Positions 6,222-59,824 of a DNA stretch of 64,000 bases are shown in pieces. Every line of letters starts with the position of its first letter. Within the stretch, counting starts at the first letter, position 1. A model generated the notes under the pieces. The model did not search any database. It was not told the DNA's origin and saw nothing but the letters and a program-made list of their open reading frames with translations. A program made the position numbers and the translations under genes. The stretch is from a virus. The DNA lies in IMG/VR virus record IMGVR_UViG_3300035034_002581; one strand, given 5' to 3'.

Positions 6222-6602
6222 TTATGAAAACTCTATAATATGAAAGTGTACTCTTCCAGAAAATATCGCAGATGCTCTAATTGTAAGAGATGTCCCTGAA
6301 ATAGGCTCAGCCCACAAATTTACATTGTCTTGATCTTCGTCATTGCTTGTTTCAAGTGTCAAAGTGACGTTGGGATTTCGTGCCCCATAATTGTTTGCAA
6401 GTGAAACAATTGCAATGTCTGCATCAAACTCAACAACACCAGTTTCAATACTAAGTTCATAAAGTAGAGTACTGTCTTCAAGAATTTTCCCGCGATCTTT
6501 CCGCAAAAAATTGTATGTATTCCTAAATCTGTTTTGGTCGATGACTGAACCCGGAAAGAGTTCGTTAGTCGACTTAAAACTTGAACTTATAATAGTAGAC
6601 AT
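6222..6602 (-). CDS. Hypothetical protein (possible structural module)
   Basis: 126-aa ORF, same frame as neighbours, separated by single codons. Confidence 0.3.
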   Translation of the reverse strand: MSTIISSSFKSTNELFPGSVIDQNRFRNTYNFLRKDRGKILEDSTLLYELSIETGVVEFDADIAIVSLANNYGARNPNVTLTLETSNDEDQDNVNLWAEPISGTSLTIRASAIFSGRVHFHIIEFS

Positions 6603-9070: not shown

Positions 9071-9437
9071 TGGTGGAGGCGGTGGGAATTGAACCCACGT
9101 CCAAAGCAACACTAATATCTAGTCATTCACAAGCTTAGTAAACATTTTTGAACAGTCAGTTTACAAGATCTGTCATCATTCTAACCCTCAAGCTAATGAA
9201 GTAAGCTTGACCACCCGTAGGGACTCCATTTAGTTTTTTGTTTTCGCAGGATTGCTACCTGTTATCTTAAGTTGAAAAACAAGGTCTTAAGAAACCCCGC
9301 CATTAAGCAGCTAGTGCTGTCTGGAAGTGTGAGTTGTTGTTTGCAACTAACGTTTTAAGCAAAGATTAAAGTCATTTACTCATTAGACTGCTTGCACTAT
9401 CAATTAGACTATCACCCTGTCGAAACCGGTGCGCCCC
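9071..9437 (-). ncRNA. ssrA: tmRNA (SsrA), one-piece, with encoded CCA
   Basis: Minus-strand 5' end GGGGGCGCACCGGTTTCGACAGGG resembles the tmRNA 5' acceptor/D region. The 3' end is ...GGTTCAATTCCCACCGCCTCCACCA (T-arm plus acceptor plus CCA). An internal tag ORF GCA AAC AAC AAC TCA CAC TTC CAG ACA GCA CTA GCT GCT TAA encodes ANNNSHFQTALAA (canonical ALAA ending) at 9303..9344. Confidence 0.8.
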
Positions 9438-9473
9438 CTTGCTCGTGTCACAAAAGTGACACGAGGTTTAAAG

Positions 9474-14358: not shown

Positions 14359-14435
14359 TGGTAGATCCCGCGAGGGTTGAACTCGCATCTGTCCGTTTAT
14401 GAGACGGGGGCTTTTACCTATTAAGCTAGGGATCC
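14359..14435 (-). tRNA. tRNA with CAT anticodon (candidate tRNA-Ile2 lysidine substrate, or Met)
   Basis: Cloverleaf read by eye: acceptor GGATCCC/GGGATCT, D GCTT/AAGC, anticodon loop CTCATAA, T-arm GCGAG-TTCAACC-CTCGC, encoded CCA; lies immediately downstream of tilS. Confidence 0.65.
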
Positions 14436-14448
14436 TCTTCTAACTATA

Positions 14449-15096
14449 TTAAGCTTTGACTTCTTGTTTCAAAAATGCTTCTTTTGTCTTCTTGTACAAG
14501 GTCTTGTGAAGTCCAGGATTGACAATCATAGCTTGTGGAACGATGTTGTGTCGAATATGATTTCTCATATATTTTGTGTCACAGTTGCTAGGATCAGTTA
14601 CAAACGGGACGTTCTTACGCCTGGCCCAATCGGAAAAATCCTTTTTCTTGGTGAGTAAGAACGGGCGGATAATATGTCTGCCTCTTTTGGCCGGGATTGT
14701 TTTTGGTTTTCCGTGCATAGCGGAAAAGATCCAGGTTTCAATTTGATCGTCCAGGTGATGACATGTAATTAGGGGAACATCGTCATAGATTTCAATTACA
14801 CTTTCAAAAAAAACGTATCTTGCATCACGCCACTCTGCCTCTGTTGACTTGCCAGGCTCTAGTTCACACTTGAAGAAGCCTACATGTAAAGGCAGACTAA
14901 ACCGATCAGCGTACTTCTTGACAAAATCCCTTGCCTTACTGCCATGCTCTGTACCATGATCAAAGTATGCAAGAATAACCTCTCTGCCACCAGCTTGCAA
15001 GAAGTCAACTACAGCCATAGAGTCAACTCCTCCAGAGCATGCAATAATTACCTTGTGAGGAATTTTACCAAGAATGTTGATCATACATACTTCCAA
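14449..15096 (-). CDS. tilS: tRNA(Ile)-lysidine synthetase (TilS)
   Basis: PP-loop SGGVDS motif (IIACSGGVDSMAV) and TilS-specific HHLDDQIET motif; 215 aa. Confidence 0.75.
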   Translation of the reverse strand: MEVCMINILGKIPHKVIIACSGGVDSMAVVDFLQAGGREVILAYFDHGTEHGSKARDFVKKYADRFSLPLHVGFFKCELEPGKSTEAEWRDARYVFFESVIEIYDDVPLITCHHLDDQIETWIFSAMHGKPKTIPAKRGRHIIRPFLLTKKKDFSDWARRKNVPFVTDPSNCDTKYMRNHIRHNIVPQAMIVNPGLHKTLYKKTKEAFLKQEVKA

Positions 15097-15323
15097 ATCA
15101 TCAAATTCCCTGGGACACTATCTGCAGACTTTCTTTCGCCACCAACTGTGATAATGTCCCAAATTGTATCGCTTACTCCATCTTCTAGCGTCCCAAGGTT
15201 AATCATAATTCCGGGAACGACTTCAATTTTATCGATCTCCTCTGGAATCCAGGCTACCTTATTGACAAGCGCTTCGCTTGCACTTGAAATCATTAGGCAC
15301 TTACGATACTTAACTTCACTCAT
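15081..15323 (-). CDS. Hypothetical protein
   Basis: 80-aa ORF overlapping tilS start by a few codons. Confidence 0.3.
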   Translation of the reverse strand: MSEVKYRKCLMISSASEALVNKVAWIPEEIDKIEVVPGIMINLGTLEDGVSDTIWDIITVGGERKSADSVPGNLMIWKYV

Positions 15324-15547
15324 TTTTCACCCAATAGTTTGACTAATCTTTCGATCTCTTCAAGATCGATTTCTTTCTTGGATTTTGACATTTCATTGTC
15401 CAGATCTTTTGTCACTGCAGACTTGTCAGTTCGTCTTGAGAATATTTCTATTAATCTTTCATCAATATCTTCACCAATCTTATTTGCCATGTGCCTAATA
15501 AGAACTTCTGCGTCGTAACTCTTAGGATCCAGCTTTTCCATTAACAC
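15320..15547 (-). CDS. Hypothetical protein
   Basis: 75-aa ORF, 4-nt overlap with downstream gene. Confidence 0.3.
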   Translation of the reverse strand: MLMEKLDPKSYDAEVLIRHMANKIGEDIDERLIEIFSRRTDKSAVTKDLDNEMSKSKKEIDLEEIERLVKLLGEK

Positions 15548-15642: not shown

Positions 15643-15736
15643 TGGTGTGCGGAGATGGATTCGAACCATCGACTACCTAGACTCCCACCGGTTAAGGCTA
15701 CATTCCACGTCTTCTACCAACTGAATTATCCGCACA
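15643..15736 (-). tRNA. tRNA-like gene, long (about 91 nt + CCA); isotype unresolved (long variable arm or intron?)
   Basis: Clear 7-bp acceptor GTGCGGA/TCCGCAC + A + CCA, T-arm GATGG-TTCGAAT-CCATC and D-loop AGTTGGTAG, but anticodon arm cannot be folded canonically by eye. Confidence 0.35.
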
Positions 15737-15920: not shown

Positions 15921-17858
15921 TTACGAATCACGCCAGAGGTTGTTTGCTGCGTAGGTCAGCACCTCTTCGGCACTTACTTCATTGTAGCCGTACTCTTCAA
16001 TGAGTGTCTTCACCATCTCATTGTACTTGCCCTTCTGCTCGTCGTCTCTGGTACGTGCCTTAGTCACAACACGTGCCATCTTGCGGACATTAGACATCAT
16101 GTAAGACTCGATAGCTTCCTTGAGAGGAGCGTAAGACGTGTAATCAACCGTTCCACCCTTTCTTACCGTGCGGAACATGTAGGAAGTTACATCCTGCCTG
16201 AATCCATCACGAGAGCTTCCTGTGATACCGATTTGCTCTTCGATAGATTGCATGAACTCTTCATCTGGGTAGCGCTCTTCTTTCGTAATGCTATCCTTGA
16301 GCATAATGTTGTTTGTATATGCCTCAGCGCTGTCAAGATACAACTCAAAGATATTCGCTGCATTCTCTTCAAATGCTGTGATGAAAGCCTTCGAGATTTC
16401 CTTTTCAAGCACACTTAGGTACTCTTCACGAATTGTCTTCTGAAGGAGACTTAGGTAACGTTCCTTGGATTCCTCGTTTGTGATTTGCTCCTTGACTTTT
16501 CGAATCATGGCATCAATTACGGAGATTGGTGTGATAACATCTTTGTCAGAAGTTGTCAAAGCGTCATCGATCGCCTTCATGATAAATCTAGTCGAAATAC
16601 CAGTCATACCCTCATTGTTAGCTTCTGCACGAAGATCCTTAATGTCAACCTTCTTGACATGCCCAGCCTCAATGACTTCTTCGCCATTGTAAAGCTTAAG
16701 CTTAGTCATTAGATCACACTTGTTACTTGGTGCAAGTCGCGTTAGAATCGAAAACATACTTGCAATTCTCAAAGTATGAGGTGCAATGTGTACGTCGAAG
16801 TCAGACTCTGCCATTCGCTTCTTGTAAATCTTGATCTCTTCATCGAGCTCAAGCACATATGGAACGTTGATCTTGACGATTCGGTCCATCACAGCTTCGT
16901 TTAAGTGATCTGACTTAAACTTGTTCCACTCTGCTTCGTTACAGTGTGATATGATAAACACATCATGATAAATCATGGGGTGCTTACCAGGTGCTGGAGA
17001 ATGCTTCTCCTGGGTAACTGTAATTGCTGGGTGGAGAAACTCAACTTCATTCTTAAAAATCTCTACGAATTCAACCAGACCTCTGTTTCCTACATTGAAA
17101 GCACCATTTAGAGACAAGATTCGAGGGTCGTCATCTGAATAGAGATCTAGCTTAGAAATGTCTTCCGAGCCGATCAAGATACTCACGTCCTGCGTGTTAG
17201 GATCAGTTGGAGGAACTACACCGACACCCTTTCGGCCTCGAGCAGAGAAGGATCCCTCAACTACCTCAAACTTTTCGTAGTCACCATCGTACTCTTCGAT
17301 TAGCTTCATTCTACAGATTGGGCACAAGTCTCCTTCGATATGAGCACCCAAAATCTCCTTGAATTCTGATCGTAAAGATCTAGGTACAAGGTGCAAAGGC
17401 TCCTCTCGGATTGGGCATCCCTTGAGGTAGTAATAAGGCTCGGCAGCTTCAAGTGCCTTCTTGACATGTTCTGTTAGCGCTGACTTACCCGCACCAACTG
17501 GTCCCATAAGCAAGAGAATCTGTCGACTCTCTTCTCCCTTTAGCGAGGCAGCCTTCAAGAACTTCATTAAGCGAGAAACTACTCTCTCGGCGCCATAAAA
17601 GTCCTTCTGGAAGAAGTCGTAAGTCTTTAACTTGTCCTCTTCGAAGAGCTTTCTAAATCTATCATTTGAGTCATCTAGCGTTTGAACGCCCTGAGACATA
17701 ATAGAATCATACACTCTGCTATGCGATAGCTTTGCGATGCGTGGATTCTCTTCAACAAGCTCAAGATATTCAATGAAGGTTCCTGACCACTTCTTGGCCT
17801 TTACCTTCTTCTTGTGCTTCTTAATAAGAGCAAGATAGTCTTTACGATTTGATGTCAT
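15921..17858 (-). CDS. prkA: PrkA-family serine protein kinase (YeaG-like, AAA+ N-terminal domain)
   Basis: 645 aa; P-loop LLLMGPVGAGKSALTEHVK and overall PrkA architecture. Confidence 0.8.
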   Translation of the reverse strand: MTSNRKDYLALIKKHKKKVKAKKWSGTFIEYLELVEENPRIAKLSHSRVYDSIMSQGVQTLDDSNDRFRKLFEEDKLKTYDFFQKDFYGAERVVSRLMKFLKAASLKGEESRQILLLMGPVGAGKSALTEHVKKALEAAEPYYYLKGCPIREEPLHLVPRSLRSEFKEILGAHIEGDLCPICRMKLIEEYDGDYEKFEVVEGSFSARGRKGVGVVPPTDPNTQDVSILIGSEDISKLDLYSDDDPRILSLNGAFNVGNRGLVEFVEIFKNEVEFLHPAITVTQEKHSPAPGKHPMIYHDVFIISHCNEAEWNKFKSDHLNEAVMDRIVKINVPYVLELDEEIKIYKKRMAESDFDVHIAPHTLRIASMFSILTRLAPSNKCDLMTKLKLYNGEEVIEAGHVKKVDIKDLRAEANNEGMTGISTRFIMKAIDDALTTSDKDVITPISVIDAMIRKVKEQITNEESKERYLSLLQKTIREEYLSVLEKEISKAFITAFEENAANIFELYLDSAEAYTNNIMLKDSITKEERYPDEEFMQSIEEQIGITGSSRDGFRQDVTSYMFRTVRKGGTVDYTSYAPLKEAIESYMMSNVRKMARVVTKARTRDDEQKGKYNEMVKTLIEEYGYNEVSAEEVLTYAANNLWRDS

Positions 17859-17913
17859 TTACTTTCTCCATTTCAATTTAATCTTACAAAGTAGTTCTAT
17901 ATGTGTTTCACAT

Positions 17914-28681: not shown

Positions 28682-28755
28682 TGGTGCCAGAGATCGGACT
28701 CGAACCGATGTCGATGAGCGTATGAAGCTCACGAACGACCTACGAACAATGGCAT
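28682..28755 (-). tRNA. tRNA-Met-like (anticodon CAT), weak D-arm (possible elongator Met or degenerate copy)
   Basis: Perfect anticodon arm TGAGC-TTCATAC-GCTCA and T-arm ATCGG-TTCGAGT-CCGAT, acceptor 5/7 paired. Confidence 0.4.
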
Positions 28756-29784: not shown

Positions 29785-29856
29785 TGGTTGCAGCGGTTGG
29801 AATCGAACCAACACCAGTAGGGTTATGAGCCGTACTTGTGACCTTCACTCACTGCG
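29785..29856 (-). tRNA. Initiator-like tRNA-Met (anticodon CAT) with C1xA72 mismatch and short D-loop
   Basis: Anticodon arm TACGG-CTCATAA-CCCTA (GG/CC pairs next to the loop, as in fMet), unpaired C1/A72 with A73, T-arm GTTGG-TTCGATT-CCAAC; D-arm irregular. Confidence 0.4.
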
Positions 29857-29862
29857 ATAAAA

Positions 29863-29944: not shown

Positions 29945-30020
29945 TGGTAGACAGCCAGGGTAACGATCCCTGCACAAATACCTTATCAGAGTACTCAGCA
30001 CAACCTGTGACTCACTGTCT
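29945..30020 (-). tRNA. tRNA-Ile (anticodon GAT)
   Basis: Anticodon arm GTACT-CTGATAA-GGTAT (with G-U pairs), T-arm CAGGG-ATCGTTA-CCCTG. Confidence 0.5.
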
Positions 30021-30024
30021 AAAA

Positions 30025-30101
30025 TGGGGTCCATGACGAGGATCAAACTCGCAACCTCCGGGGACACAACCCAGCGCTCTTTCACTTGAGCTTCATGAAC
30101 C
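30025..30101 (-). tRNA. tRNA-His (anticodon GTG) with encoded G-1 opposite C73
   Basis: Extra 5' G before acceptor GTTCATG, discriminator C, anticodon loop TTGTGTC. Confidence 0.65.
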
Positions 30102-41997: not shown

Positions 41998-43225
41998 AAA
42001 GGACTTGCTTTAAAGTATGAACGATCTCTACGAGATCTTTTTGTGCTGCCATTACATCATCAATCTCTTTGTATGCTGCAGGTGTCTCGTCGATAACACT
42101 CTTATCCTTCTTGCATTCAACACCCTCAGTTGCATCACGGTGCATCTTTAGTGTGAAGGTCTTGCGTGCTTCACCTCTAGACATTTTTCTTCCTGCTCCG
42201 TGGCTACAAGAATCGAAAGATTCCTTGTTACCCAATCCACGAACGACGTAAGACTTATCTCCCATCGAGCCAGGAATGATACCGAGCTTACCCTTTGCAG
42301 CACACACAGCACCCTTTCTTGTCAAGATCACATTCTTTCCGAAGTGCTTTTCACGGGAGATGTAGTTGTGGTGGCAGTTAACTGCAGTCAAGGATGCATT
42401 GAACTTACGCTTAAGTACCTTCTTCATTGCCGCTATGACCTGATCCATCATCAGTTCACGGTTGACTCTAGCATAGTTCTGTGCCCATTCAACAGCCTCA
42501 ACGTAATCGTTGAAGTGTGCAGTACCTTCAGGCAAATATGCAAGATTCTCGTCCTTCAAGTTGATGAAGTGACGTCTCATATCTTCCTTGGCAAGTCGGA
42601 TAAAGTAGCTACCAATTTTGTTTCCAATACCACGTGAGCCTGAGTGGAGCATGACCCAGACTCTGTTACTCTCGTCGAGGCAAACTTCGATGAAGTGATT
42701 CCCAGTTCCCAACGTTCCTAGGTGACGGAATGTATTACCGCCTGCAACTTTAGGATGCTTAGCAACGATGCTATTAAACGTTACTTCAAGTTCAGACCAC
42801 GCATTCGCCTGTGCTACTGGGATCTTGTTCTCATCCCAACCGCCCTTATCATACTTTCCTCCATTGTTTGTCCTGCCGTGTGGAACAGCAGCTTCAATAG
42901 CAGTACGCATTGCTTTCAAACTAGAAGGCAGATCCTCAGCAGTTAGATCAGTCATTGCTGCACACATGCCGCATCCGATGTCAACTCCAACTGCGGCAGG
43001 AATTACTGCTCCGACAGTCGGAATGACGCTACCAACAGTAGCTCCCATACCCCAGTGAACGTCAGGCATAGCTGCAATCCACTTGTGAATGAAAGGCATT
43101 TCTGCAGCATTAATTAGCTGTTGCTTTGCAGCATCTTCAACAGGGACACCTTTTGTCCACATCTTGATTAGACCCTTCTCAGTCTTTAAAATTTCATAGT
43201 TTGATTTGTTCTTGCTGTTTGACAT
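41984..43225 (-). CDS. rtcB: RtcB-family RNA 3'-phosphate/2',3'-cyclic phosphate ligase
   Basis: 413 aa; conserved RtcB metal/GTP-binding motifs (MGATVGSV, GCGMCAA, HSGSRGIGNKIGS, NCHHNY, SCSHGAGR). Confidence 0.85.
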   Translation of the reverse strand: MSNSKNKSNYEILKTEKGLIKMWTKGVPVEDAAKQQLINAAEMPFIHKWIAAMPDVHWGMGATVGSVIPTVGAVIPAAVGVDIGCGMCAAMTDLTAEDLPSSLKAMRTAIEAAVPHGRTNNGGKYDKGGWDENKIPVAQANAWSELEVTFNSIVAKHPKVAGGNTFRHLGTLGTGNHFIEVCLDESNRVWVMLHSGSRGIGNKIGSYFIRLAKEDMRRHFINLKDENLAYLPEGTAHFNDYVEAVEWAQNYARVNRELMMDQVIAAMKKVLKRKFNASLTAVNCHHNYISREKHFGKNVILTRKGAVCAAKGKLGIIPGSMGDKSYVVRGLGNKESFDSCSHGAGRKMSRGEARKTFTLKMHRDATEGVECKKDKSVIDETPAAYKEIDDVMAAQKDLVEIVHTLKQVLCVKG

Positions 43226-46673: not shown

Positions 46674-48485
46674 TCACTTTCTTGACGAAATCATCTGTTT
46701 TAAGACATTCCGCAAGAAAGCTTCAGACATGTTGTCTGTTGTGTTTAAGTAAGCTTCTACTTCTGCTTTGTCAAGTGCCTTTCCAAGCTCGCCACCCTTG
46801 ATGCCTTGTGCCATAAGATCTTTTGCACTTGACGCAGGCGGGCTTTCTGCAAAACTAACAAACTTACGGGCATCAGACGGGCTGAGAGAAGAAGATGGCG
46901 AATTGTTTGAAAAATCGATCACGTCCTGGCTCGAAAGCTTGTACTTCTTTCCAAACTTGATGTATTCTTTCTTTAAGTTCACAACATTATTGATGTCAAT
47001 TGAGCTTAATCGGATCAAGAAAGAAACGATGTCACCAACTGAATTCTTAAATCGCATTCTCTTCAACGTCTTCAGGGTGGCTGACGGATCATTAGCTGAC
47101 AACATTGTAGCAATTTGAACCTCAATACTTCCACCTAGAGAAATTCCACTCTCAGGACCCAGAACCCTCAGCCCAGGAAATATTTGGTCAGTTACAGAAA
47201 GTTCAACTGCCCAATCAATGTACTCTAGCGGATCTACTGCGGTGAGAATGCCCTTTACAAACTCATCTTGAATTCGGTCAGGAGACACACCCTTTAGGCC
47301 GCTCTTTGCTACCTGAGTAACAGCGTCTTCGGTCTCTTGATCAAGTCTTGATCCCATTCTCGCAGCAAATCTTATCGCTCGTAGCACACGAAGTGGATCT
47401 TCATTAAATCTTTCAATGGGATTGCCTACTGCACGAATCACTCTGTTTTTGATGTCTTCAATGCCACCTACGAGGTCAACAATTTCTTTCTCATCAATAT
47501 CGTAAAAAAGTGCGTTAACTGTGAGATCTCTTCTTTTAACATCGTCTTCGATAGAGGCCCACCTAACTTCGTCAGGACGCCTACCAGATCCAATATCTTC
47601 ACGGAATGTAGCGATCTCGTACTCGTTACCTTCGTCAGTCCAAACACGAACAACACCAAAGTCCTTGCCTGTTAGATCGATCTTAAAGTTGAGATTTGAC
47701 AGCACTTCAATTACACGGTCGGGTGTAAGATCAGTTGCAAGGTCATAGTCCTTTGGCGTTTTGTTCAGAAGTGTATCCCTAACAGCGCCACCAACTACAA
47801 AGAGGTCGCCGTATCTTTTAATTACATTGTGGATCGCAATGAGATCTTCTGGTAGATCCATTGACATGGGCCTTCGAATCTCTTCACTCTCTTTGATCAT
47901 AGAACTCATTTTTGACTCTTTAAGATCGAGGATGTCTTGATAGTTACAATTTGCAATCTTTTGAAACCTTTCCACTGGGTGCCCAACGCCTTCGACTCCA
48001 TAAAAATCAGCAGCATTTTCAAATGAACTTAAGTGATGATGCCTATCATCCCAAAAGTGAGCTTCTGATATCACTGGATGTTGTGCAAGGATCTTTTTAA
48101 TCTGTGACACCTTAAAGGATTCTGTGTCATTGGTCGTTTTCAAGTATACAGCGTCAAAATTAAGACCAGCTTGATGCAAAAGTTCAGCAACTCTGTATCT
48201 AATTGCGGCATTTGAGTTCGGCCTCCCAGTCATTAACACACAGAGAATGTTAGGATCAGCAATTGATTGCTTAGCCAAAGCAACAATCTCAGTATTCCAC
48301 CAATCCTTACTCGGAACTTCAGGAACACAAGGCTCAGATAAAGAAGCTGGGTAAGTCCACCAGCGACCAGGACCTTTATGTGCAGGCCAATCTGTTGGGT
48401 AAGTTGGACTTCCGAAAAGTGTTCCATCGAAGTCAAAAACATGAAGTATTAGTGTCATCTTGGTATCTCTGTAATTGATCCGCAA
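46674..48485 (-). CDS. Fusion protein: N-terminal HAD-superfamily (polynucleotide 3'-phosphatase-like) domain + class II tRNA nucleotidyltransferase (CCA-adding enzyme) head/neck
   Basis: HVFDFDGTLFG (HAD motif I) and HFWDDR (motif IV) in first about 190 aa; then LFVVGGAVRDTLL, DYDLATDLTP (DxD) and RRDLTVNAL motifs diagnostic of class II CCA-adding/polyA polymerase family. Confidence 0.75.
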   Translation of the reverse strand: MRINYRDTKMTLILHVFDFDGTLFGSPTYPTDWPAHKGPGRWWTYPASLSEPCVPEVPSKDWWNTEIVALAKQSIADPNILCVLMTGRPNSNAAIRYRVAELLHQAGLNFDAVYLKTTNDTESFKVSQIKKILAQHPVISEAHFWDDRHHHLSSFENAADFYGVEGVGHPVERFQKIANCNYQDILDLKESKMSSMIKESEEIRRPMSMDLPEDLIAIHNVIKRYGDLFVVGGAVRDTLLNKTPKDYDLATDLTPDRVIEVLSNLNFKIDLTGKDFGVVRVWTDEGNEYEIATFREDIGSGRRPDEVRWASIEDDVKRRDLTVNALFYDIDEKEIVDLVGGIEDIKNRVIRAVGNPIERFNEDPLRVLRAIRFAARMGSRLDQETEDAVTQVAKSGLKGVSPDRIQDEFVKGILTAVDPLEYIDWAVELSVTDQIFPGLRVLGPESGISLGGSIEVQIATMLSANDPSATLKTLKRMRFKNSVGDIVSFLIRLSSIDINNVVNLKKEYIKFGKKYKLSSQDVIDFSNNSPSSSLSPSDARKFVSFAESPPASSAKDLMAQGIKGGELGKALDKAEVEAYLNTTDNMSEAFLRNVLKQMISSRK

Positions 48486-58795: not shown

Positions 58796-59824
58796 TCACA
58801 GACCGAATGTCAGATCATCCAGGTAGTTGAAGAACCACTTTCGTGCTGCACCCTGGACGGTCGCCGTCACTTCACCCTTTTCAAGCTCGCTACACTCGAT
58901 CGTGTCAGTCTCTTCCTTCAACACGTCCTTGACAACCCATCCTAGGAACTTACCAGTAGACTTGCGATCGAGTGGTGCCTTCATCATCTGTAGTGCTTCG
59001 ATGCCTTGGTTGAGACGCGCTTCAGTCACAACTGCTGCAGTGAAGTCCTCAATCGCAGCCAAACGTTCAGGTGCGACAGGAATCTTCTCACGTGTCTTGG
59101 ACACCTTATGCTTCTCACCCTTGGTCTTGAACCAGACGTCTGACAACTCCCAACCTGGTGTGACGCATGTCCAGACAACTCCTTCACCTACACCCTTGTG
59201 TCCTAGTGCTGCAGCGATTGGGCATTCACGCTCAACACTGTCAGTCACGTGTGAGAGTTCGTCCACAGACAACTTAGGATCGTTGAAGTTGATGGAGGTC
59301 GTGAACGTCTCGAAGTGATTGACGTTCAGGAATCGTGGGTCTTCACTTGTGACATCACTCATGTCCTCAGCACTCATCCAAGTGCAAGTCTCTTCTTCAC
59401 CTGGGTTTACGCAGTCGAGAACAGCGAATAGTACGAACACCTTCTCATGTTGATTGATTGCAACACCCTTCTGAATGCCCTTTCCACACCATTCTCCGAA
59501 GTAGGTTCGCACTACATCTGGGTCATCATGAGGTACAGCCCAATCCAGATTGGATTGTGACATAAGACCTGCAAACTGACAATTGTCGTTCCCTACTGTC
59601 AGTTCGCGAGTACGACTCTGAAACTTGATGGGCTGGCCTCGCTGTACTACAACACCTACGTTTGTCCCATGCAGCTTTACAGTGCCACGGAACTTGAGTG
59701 TTGGAATCGGCTTTGTGTCGTCATACAGCGGTACGTCTTGTTCGTCACAACCTGTGTATGTTGCCCGAAGACGGACTGTGTTGACAGCATTTCGAAACTG
59801 ATTGATGGATGGAAACTTGTTCAT
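58796..59824 (-). CDS. Rnl2-family (T4 RNA ligase 2-like) ATP-dependent RNA ligase / nucleotidyltransferase
   Basis: Motif I KLHGTN (T4 Rnl2 KIHGTN), motif IV GEGVVW, motif V FKTKGEKH; 342 aa. Confidence 0.65.
   Translation of the reverse strand: MNKFPSINQFRNAVNTVRLRATYTGCDEQDVPLYDDTKPIPTLKFRGTVKLHGTNVGVVVQRGQPIKFQSRTRELTVGNDNCQFAGLMSQSNLDWAVPHDDPDVVRTYFGEWCGKGIQKGVAINQHEKVFVLFAVLDCVNPGEEETCTWMSAEDMSDVTSEDPRFLNVNHFETFTTSINFNDPKLSVDELSHVTDSVERECPIAAALGHKGVGEGVVWTCVTPGWELSDVWFKTKGEKHKVSKTREKIPVAPERLAAIEDFTAAVVTEARLNQGIEALQMMKAPLDRKSTGKFLGWVVKDVLKEETDTIECSELEKGEVTATVQGAARKWFFNYLDDLTFGL

Follow-up and report, generated by a model that had tools for sequence, protein, structure and literature searches.

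A catalytic-domain-only TilS gene beside an Ile2-type tRNA gene in a large uncultured phage

Why would a phage carry the gene for a tRNA-modifying enzyme directly beside a tRNA gene, and how could that enzyme work? A locus on IMG/VR virus record IMGVR_UViG_3300035034_002581, of which we analyzed a stretch of 64,000 nucleotides (nt; hereafter the window), raises this question. On its minus strand, tilS (14449..15084), which encodes a lysidine synthetase of 211 amino acids (aa) consisting of the catalytic PP-loop domain only, is followed by a tRNA gene with the anticodon CAU (14359..14435; hereafter cat1). The original prediction read the two as a self-contained unit for decoding AUA codons, and matches to TilS models, 21 core residues, the predicted fold, Ile2-discriminating bases and conservation of the pair all favor that reading. 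It also placed the genes next to each other, as they are, at a distance of 14 nt; read from the sequence, the spacer between the tilS stop codon (14449-14451) and the tRNA is 13 nt (14436..14448).

The enzyme and the adjoining tRNA

Residues of the TilS protein are numbered here from the ATG at 15084. A TTG at 15096 would extend the open reading frame (ORF) to 215 aa (14449-15096, minus strand) but is unlikely to be in use; the ATG is probably the start, since it overlaps the stop codon of an upstream 80-aa ORF in an ATGA arrangement. The protein matched TIGR02432 (lysidine_TilS_N) along the entire profile (positions 1-189 of 189) with 129.5 bits against a cutoff of 93.6, and PF01171 with 125.5 bits, the remaining PP-loop families giving marginal matches only. 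It contains the motifs ACSGGVDS and CHHLDDQIETW, and thus both the SGGVDS and the HHLDDQIET on which the TilS call had first been based. Within the PP-loop motif, S17, G18, G19 and D21 were invariant and S22 nearly so among 26 family members.

When Protein Data Bank (PDB) sequences were searched, only three TilS proteins matched: residues 14-206 of the phage protein aligned to residues 25-229 of the 317 of Aquifex aeolicus TilS, and the aligned regions were 20-222 of 464 in Geobacillus kaustophilus TilS and 14-198 of 433 in Escherichia coli TilS. An AlphaFold2 model built from 26 homologues had a mean predicted local distance difference test (pLDDT) score of 94.3, and its top five Foldseek matches were all TilS structures (2e21, 2e89, 1wy5 and 1ni5; E 9e-15 to 3e-13, TMq 0.78-0.85). 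TtuA/NcsA thiolases came next (E ~1e-10, 16-18% identity). We rejected a TtcA/TtuA-like thiolase because the protein lacks CxxC cluster motifs, scored 27 bits against a cutoff of 272 with the TtcA model, matched TtuA structures only at E ~1e-10 and has the TilS-specific HHxDDQxET motif.

To compare core residues, we aligned 71 phage proteins with the N-terminal domains of 78 cellular TilS proteins, calling a position conserved at 85% or more. All 21 positions conserved in the cellular domains keep the same residue at the same level in the phage proteins: A15, S17, G18, G19, D21, S22, M23, R86, R89, Y90, H109, D113, E116, R140, P141, D164, N167, R174, N175, R178 and P183. The original prediction had hinged on the presence of TilS catalytic residues, and because these 21 are kept, the catalytic machinery of the phage protein is intact. 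A further six residues, W85, W118, T45, A51, K198 and K199, are invariant specifically in the phage family.

The neighboring tRNA, called by ARAGORN and by Rfam (57.1 bits), has a regular cloverleaf except for a C27xA43 mismatch, and its CCA end is encoded. Its acceptor stem has G1.U72, G2-C71, A3-U70, U4-A69 and C5-G68, followed by A73; its D stem contains C11-G24 and U12-A23, and its anticodon arm has C29-G41 and the loop CUCAUAA with A37 and A38. Nureki et al., in 1994, reportedly identified A73 and U12-A23 as IleRS determinants. A review counts the 12-23 pair (printed as U12-G23) and C29-G41 among the determinants of E. coli IleRS (PMC9976931). A73, U12-A23 and C29-G41 are all present in cat1, the determinants themselves being defined in E. 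coli only. In bacteria, G3 or A3 with C70 or U70 is never found in Met or fMet tRNAs and therefore denotes tRNA-Ile(CAU), and A11-U24 together with G12-C23 marks initiators (Silva et al. 2006, PMC1635315). Under these rules, A3-U70 and the C11-G24 of the D stem assign cat1 to Ile2 and not to the initiators.

Profile scores agree with this assignment. We built a profile from the tRNAs linked to tilS in other phages, leaving cat1 out, and scored the tRNAs of the window with it: cat1 ranked first at 38.2 bits, ahead of the next best at 29.7, and the other two CAT-anticodon tRNA genes of the window, cat3 and cat2, reached 17.4 and 6.0 bits. A covariance model ordered the window tRNAs in the same way. 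A blastn search of phage records returned three partial, unannotated matches to cat1 and could not classify it. As the original prediction had proposed, the CAT-anticodon tRNA beside TilS is thus, by its predicted structure, an Ile2-type tRNA.

The pair and the short enzyme in other phages

The strongest evidence comes from conservation of the pair. We surveyed 80 IMG/VR loci whose products, relatives of the window protein, share 45-53% identity with it, scanning 3 kilobases (kb) on each side; they represent 70 distinct proteins. For 26 of the 70, a CAT tRNA lies within 100 nt on the same strand, mostly 11-25 nt past the stop codon, and a further 13 have one within 3 kb. With the proteins clustered at 80% identity, 22 of 53 clusters had such an adjacent CAT tRNA and 34 had one within 3 kb; with single-linkage clustering at 60%, the corresponding counts were 6 and 12 of 18. 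Where any tRNA lies within 100 nt of tilS (~32 loci), the nearest is a CAT tRNA in 26. In some lineages the tRNA is upstream and in others downstream, showing that the linkage survived rearrangement. The pairing also exceeds chance because cat1 lies ~14 kb from the main tRNA cluster of the window and the arrangement recurs in many diverged phage contigs. By this survey, conservation of the tilS-tRNA-Ile2 pair extends through a large family of phages.

The 35 distinct linked tRNAs share Ile2 features. G3-C70 is present in 28 and A3-U70 in seven, and none has C3-G70; A73 and the loop CUCAUAA occur in all 35, C4-G69 in 24 and C5-G68 in 27. When they were placed on the cloverleaf, 97.3% of cells paired and 20 of 21 pairs showed compensatory changes, far above shuffled and slid controls, which indicates functional tRNAs under selection. 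Acceptor pairs 1-72 and 4-69 to 7-66 vary freely, but hardly any variation is seen in C28-G42 (32/35), G30-C40 (34/35), the D stem or the anticodon loop. In 19 of the 35, including cat1, a non-canonical U.C, C.U or C.A occupies pair 27-43 (columns 29/45 of alignment A3), whereas the other stem pairs hardly ever fail to pair; a domain-minimal enzyme could use this position for recognition. The consensus of these tRNAs matches more than 1000 phage records, in which the gene is annotated as tRNA-Met or, in a newer record, as tRNA-Ile2, and it agrees with the tRNA-Ile2(CAU) genes of phages that lack tilS.

The second conserved property is the brevity of the enzyme. The tilS product has neither of the appended C-terminal tRNA-binding domains (CTD1 and CTD2) and ends at about residue 229 of the 317 of A. 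aeolicus TilS, right after the helix that joins the N-terminal domain to CTD1. Because the C-terminal half is absent, the protein scores only 66 bits with the full-length equivalog NF007942, whose cutoff is 606. A search of ~5.8 billion proteins (E ≤ 1e-10) found homologues in at least 970 clusters. The best 120 were all 186-232 aa long with PF01171 as their sole TilS-related domain, on contigs of up to 420 kb, and relatives are encoded on at least 547 IMG/VR viral contigs. Profiles of the cellular CTDs, run against six-frame translations of the window and ~70 related loci, found nothing (best E 0.17), having recovered 67 of 67 type I enzymes as a positive control.

Cellular enzymes differ in this respect. 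We compared one genome per species from 185,579 bacterial and archaeal species, and among the best 80 matches, 79 were cellular TilS, 27-37% identical and running on for 94 aa or more beyond the catalytic domain that aligned, with total lengths of ~285-315 aa (type II) or 390-490 aa (type I). The lone exception is a 200-aa, 45%-identical protein on a 7-kb contig (CACHXE010000024.1) of the Pelagibacteraceae single-cell assembly AG-430-L09, with an Ile2-type tRNA 310 nt downstream of the short TilS. This contig is probably phage DNA within a SAR11 single-cell assembly and points to a possible host of some family members. Taken at the level of sequence, short catalytic-only TilS is a large, essentially phage-only family, and its size together with the retention of every core residue indicates purifying selection.

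Cellular TilS of type II (A. aeolicus; 1wy5, 2e21 and 2e89) and type I (E. coli, 1ni5; G. kaustophilus, 3a2k) has the same PP-loop catalytic domain as the phage protein and shares with it SGGxDS, HHxDDQxET, RPF, DxSN and RNxxR. The phage protein is 24-37% identical to these structurally known enzymes, lacks CTD1 and CTD2, and is encoded beside its presumed substrate. Other phages already provide members of the same short family: over at least 90% of the protein, TilS of the Pseudomonas jumbo phages PA5oct and MIJ3 is 42% identical (PA5oct, 203 aa, catalytic domain only) and that of the 635-642-kb huge phages LR756502 and LR745206 is 48% identical, and these are the nearest among cultured or curated phages. 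By contrast, TilS of the Ralstonia jumbo phage RsoM2USA (ORF84, 349 aa, reported in 2021 in a phage with 44 tRNAs; PMC8504454) is long enough for a C-terminal domain, like type II, and is not of the minimal form found in the window.

Phage TilS and phage tRNA-Ile2 are each already known. TilS was reported in MIJ3 and PA5oct in 2019, with speculation on host viability; the parts of that account that deal with the gene contain no comment on absent domains or a linked tRNA (PMC6892783). A phage tRNA-Ile(CAU) with IleRS signatures was recognized in T4-like phages in 2006 and assigned to AUA (PMC1524935), and a tRNA(CAU) encoded by a vibriophage was found to carry lysidine, according to work cited in PMC13191261. 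T4-like and other phages with tRNA-Ile2 lack tilS and presumably use the host enzyme, whereas the phage of the window supplies the enzyme in cis. A survey of huge phages treats tRNA-modification genes in general terms only (PMC7162821). The literature searched held no statement that the common phage TilS consists of the catalytic domain only, and none of a conserved cassette of TilS with an Ile2-type tRNA; what we did not find described is therefore the domain-minimal enzyme and the conserved pair. TilS beside a CAT tRNA is a sound but unsurprising finding for a huge phage, and the minimal architecture is the point for TilS specialists.

The surveyed loci contained some further features. Three of them (L054, L070 and L077, 2828-2985) carry two different CAT tRNAs with G3 or A3, Ile2-type by their 3-70 pair, in tandem directly upstream of tilS, and L054 also has an initiator-like CAT tRNA (6421-6492; A11-U24, G12-C23) with a degenerate acceptor stem. 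A ClpP gene lies ~0.8-1.5 kb downstream of tilS in 26 of the 70 loci (for example, L009:4415-5032), mostly without a nearby tRNA. No protein neighbor of tilS was conserved across the related loci, the recurrent neighbor being the tRNA. We rejected a conserved protein partner, since only ClpP and a trypsin-like peptidase recur, mostly in loci without tRNA and with no evident functional link.

How a domain-minimal TilS might act

We consider it likely that the locus is a two-gene cassette for AUA decoding, made up of a catalytic-domain TilS and its presumed substrate, tRNA-Ile2. Given co-orientation and the very short spacer, processing of the tilS transcript probably frees the tRNA from its 3' end. 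TilS chemistry is established as adenylation of C34 followed by lysine substitution, and lysidine switches the tRNA from MetRS and AUG to IleRS and AUA (TilS literature). Given its conserved motifs and core residues, the phage enzyme would use ATP to adenylate C2 of C34, after which lysine would replace adenosine monophosphate (AMP) to give lysidine. The benefit would be AUA decoding that no longer hinges on how much TilS the host makes or on how specific that enzyme is.

With both CTDs absent, the phage enzyme would be unable to read the acceptor stem or the body of the tRNA in the manner of cellular type I and type II enzymes, and would have to choose its substrate from the anticodon arm alone; in keeping with this idea, the linked tRNAs vary in their acceptor stems and are fixed in their anticodon arms. 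C28-G42, G30-C40, the 27:43 mismatch and possibly, in an indirect way, G/A3:C/U70 are candidate discrimination signals. More speculatively, W85, W118 and K198-K199, the last two in a lysine-rich C-terminal helix, may take over tRNA binding. Cellular TilS has been described as always carrying at least one appended domain, so the phage architecture lies outside that description. The short phage proteins, of ~200 aa, might accordingly form a third architectural class of TilS that is fully active alone and rejects tRNA-Met purely through the anticodon arm, a proposal that we regard as evenly balanced.

Codon usage fits the cassette modestly. In 39 long ORFs of the window, AUA makes up 10.6 per 1000 codons and 15% of Ile codons, about twice the frequency in E. 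coli as a reference; in a published table (JBC 2025) the value is 4.9 in E. coli, 2.9 in G. kaustophilus and 0.6 in Burkholderia cenocepacia. The AT-rich codon usage to which the unit had been linked is only moderately true (G+C is 38-49%), and its tie to the cassette is modest. Avoidance of AUA within tilS itself was not significant: none of its 17 Ile codons is AUA, where 15% would be expected (P ~0.06).

Several observations weigh against the cassette or against a self-sufficient enzyme. Use of AUA is only moderate, and promoter and terminator scans around the two genes gave chance-level results. Cat1 has U4-A69 where C4-G69 is common, opens with a G1.U72 wobble, and is just 57-68% identical to the other tilS-linked tRNAs. 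In about 27 of the 70 related loci, the 3 kb on either side contain no tRNA; four (L011, L059, L074 and L083) have tRNA-Leu(UAA) instead at the downstream position, ~14 nt after tilS; and in PA5oct and LR756502, unlike the window, the nearest 5 kb around tilS are free of CAT tRNAs. Finally, deletion of CTD2 alone strongly cut the activity of B. cenocepacia TilS (PMC11947777).

The last point, with the description of cellular TilS as never lacking an appended domain, would suit a short TilS that is inactive or depends on a partner, be it host TilS or another phage protein, with host TilS modifying the phage tRNA-Ile2. Host enzymes are thought to modify vibriophage tRNAs, including k2C34 (PMC13191261), and the more than 1000 phage records with similar Ile2-type tRNAs compare with only 33 that have a TilS match. 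We nevertheless think this explanation unlikely: a large family that keeps every core residue is under purifying selection, neither the window nor the 3 kb around tilS in ~70 loci contains a CTD-like ORF, no protein neighbor is conserved with tilS, and TilS-like wobble enzymes that read the anticodon arm alone exist (for example, MnmA and TadA). If the enzyme is active, its target might still be different or broader, such as host elongator tRNA-Met, other CAU tRNAs or another reaction at C34, with adjacency reflecting residence in a tRNA-rich region. The known means of discriminating against tRNA-Met are absent without CTD1 and CTD2, removal of CTD2 relaxed discrimination at 3:70 in B. cenocepacia TilS (PMC11947777), and some family members adjoin tRNA-Leu(UAA) or tRNA-Lys, or no tRNA. 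This we hold to be improbable, since Ile2-type CAT tRNAs account for 26 of the ~32 adjacent tRNAs although CAT tRNAs are only ~3 of the 42 in the window, since truncated B. cenocepacia TilS still rejected tRNA-Met (PMC11947777), and since a near-invariant C28-G42, G30-C40 and loop beside variable acceptor stems is what a cognate reader of the anticodon arm would leave.

The remaining alternative, that cat1 is an ordinary elongator tRNA-Met that lies beside tilS by coincidence, is the least probable of all in our judgment. ARAGORN labels it so from the anticodon, and it lacks C4-G69; C4-G69 and C5-G68 are frequent in Ile2, though not universal, and are determinants for E. coli TilS, and cat1 has C5-G68 only. 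However, A3-U70 is reported to be absent from bacterial Met and fMet tRNAs (PMC1635315); CAT tRNAs with G3-C70 or A3-U70 hold the same position in dozens of diverged phages; and cat1 is the top match of the window to the linked-tRNA profile, with cat2 and cat3 far lower. An AUA-decoding cassette remains the reading that we prefer.

Setting in the window and implications

The original prediction had counted two further CAT tRNAs, one elongator-like and one initiator-like, and ARAGORN does call both (28682-28753 and 29785-29861). The gene at 29785..29856 (minus strand, CCA encoded; cat3) scored 30.6 bits with Rfam. ARAGORN places its 5' end at 29861, which gives a poor acceptor stem, whereas Rfam and the minimum free energy (MFE) fold from RNAfold prefer 29856. 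From there, cat3 has C1xA72 (the mismatch pointed out in the original prediction), G2-C71 and C3-G70, six good acceptor pairs, A73 and CCA, and a 6-nt spacer separates it from the upstream CCA, as elsewhere in the cluster. Its initiator-like character holds for C1xA72 and for G30-C40 and G31-C39 but is incomplete: a C29xC41 mismatch breaks the three G-C pairs of initiators, and the D arm is shrunken (GUGA/UCAC, 4 base pairs, 3-nt loop) and lacks the initiator pairs A11-U24 and G12-C23 (in the ARAGORN register, 11-24 is U-A). We therefore describe cat3, from its predicted structure, as initiator-like and of uncertain function.

The gene at 28682..28753 (minus strand; cat2) is aberrant. It scored 27.7 bits with Rfam, below the threshold of 29, has U5xC68 and U6xU67 in the acceptor stem, no D arm and the loop UUCAUAC, and its MFE fold lengthens the anticodon stem instead. 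Its low score, two acceptor mismatches and missing D arm make a function as elongator tRNA-Met doubtful. Exact 15-mer scans of IMG/VR returned 54 matches for the cat3 anticodon arm and 111 for that of cat2, roughly chance level by estimate; after a tRNA filter, two cat3-like tRNAs were left and no tRNA with the cat2 arm except cat2 itself. The two (L103:1417-1492, on a 363-kb contig, and L110) are initiator-like and have the same anticodon arm, including C29xC41, with the ends UGCGGG...CCCGCAA, U1-A72 and normal-sized D loops; recurrence of the arm is not independent evidence of conservation, because the search pattern required it. A blastn search of phage records with cat2 and cat3 found no match. 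The evidence thus bears out only part of the proposed full set of Ile2, Met and fMet tRNAs.

The window belongs to the 110-kb IMG/VR contig 3300035698_022074, which a protein search matched at 100% identity. A megablast search of 50,697 phage records with 4 kb around the tilS locus found no match, and the carrier is a large uncultured phage without a close cultured relative. Almost all genes of the window are on the minus strand. ARAGORN found 38 tRNAs and a transfer-messenger RNA (tmRNA), and Rfam four further tRNA matches; nearly all lie in the main cluster at 28-40 kb. Among them, tRNA-Ile(GAU) (29945..30020, minus strand; ARAGORN), which decodes AUU and AUC, completes the Ile box. Beside it is a second tRNA-His(GUG) with U37 (30028-30100, minus strand), which Rfam detected (43.4 bits) and which ARAGORN missed at its default threshold but reported once that was relaxed. 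Two tRNA-like elements were matched by Rfam only, a partial one at 25250-25308 (minus strand; model positions 8-63), whose loop UUCUAAC gives the amber-suppressor-like anticodon CUA, and one at 25324-25396 (minus strand) with the loop UUUUUGA and a T loop of unusual form. A tRNA with a long variable arm (15646-15735, minus strand), some 500 nt upstream of tilS, adjoins tRNA-Arg(CCU); with introns allowed, ARAGORN gives it an 8-nt anticodon loop and the four-base anticodon 'gtag' (Tyr|Leu).

Immediately upstream of tilS are the 80-aa ORF (15081..15323, minus strand) and a 75-aa ORF that overlaps it (15320..15547, minus strand), both co-oriented with tilS and of no known family. Neither has a Pfam match or lies beside tilS in other phage loci; with no conservation and no CTD-profile match, we rejected them as the source of the missing TilS domains. 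Just beyond this region, PrkA (645 aa), a DUF444/YeaH-like protein (400 aa) and SpoVR (467 aa) are encoded consecutively (15921-20434, minus strand), a row that resembles the bacterial yeaG-yeaH-ycgB stress operon; PrkA is also near tilS in three other loci (L032, L072 and L078). Within the tRNA cluster, an 892-aa ORF (33631-36309, minus strand) matches the shoulder and repeat domains of major vault protein (PF11978, 1.4e-26; PF17795), which is unexpected in a phage.

Around the tRNA cluster is a set of genes for tRNA repair and translation rescue, all on the minus strand: RtcB RNA ligase (41984-43225), a CCA-adding/poly(A)-polymerase-family enzyme (46674-48485) fused to a HAD 'Swiss army knife RNA repair' domain, an RNA ligase (58796-59824) and the tmRNA (9071-9438), whose tag is ANNNSHFQTALAA. 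Supply of both an enzyme and its tRNA fits these tRNA-maintenance genes and the ~40 tRNAs of the window.

These results suggest that large phages supply, besides a tRNA of their own, the modifying enzyme on which its activation depends. For annotation, they bear on the many matched phage records, and on ARAGORN, which label such tRNAs tRNA-Met. A phage family that lacks both CTDs, keeps the catalytic residues and is encoded beside an Ile2-type tRNA offers a natural setting in which to test minimal recognition of a substrate. If the short enzyme is active alone, it and its tRNA would make up a compact AUA-decoding cassette, independent of the host and moved by phages from one host to another, as well as a minimal system for learning how TilS rejects tRNA-Met without acceptor-stem contacts, and a ready-made orthogonal pair for codon engineering.

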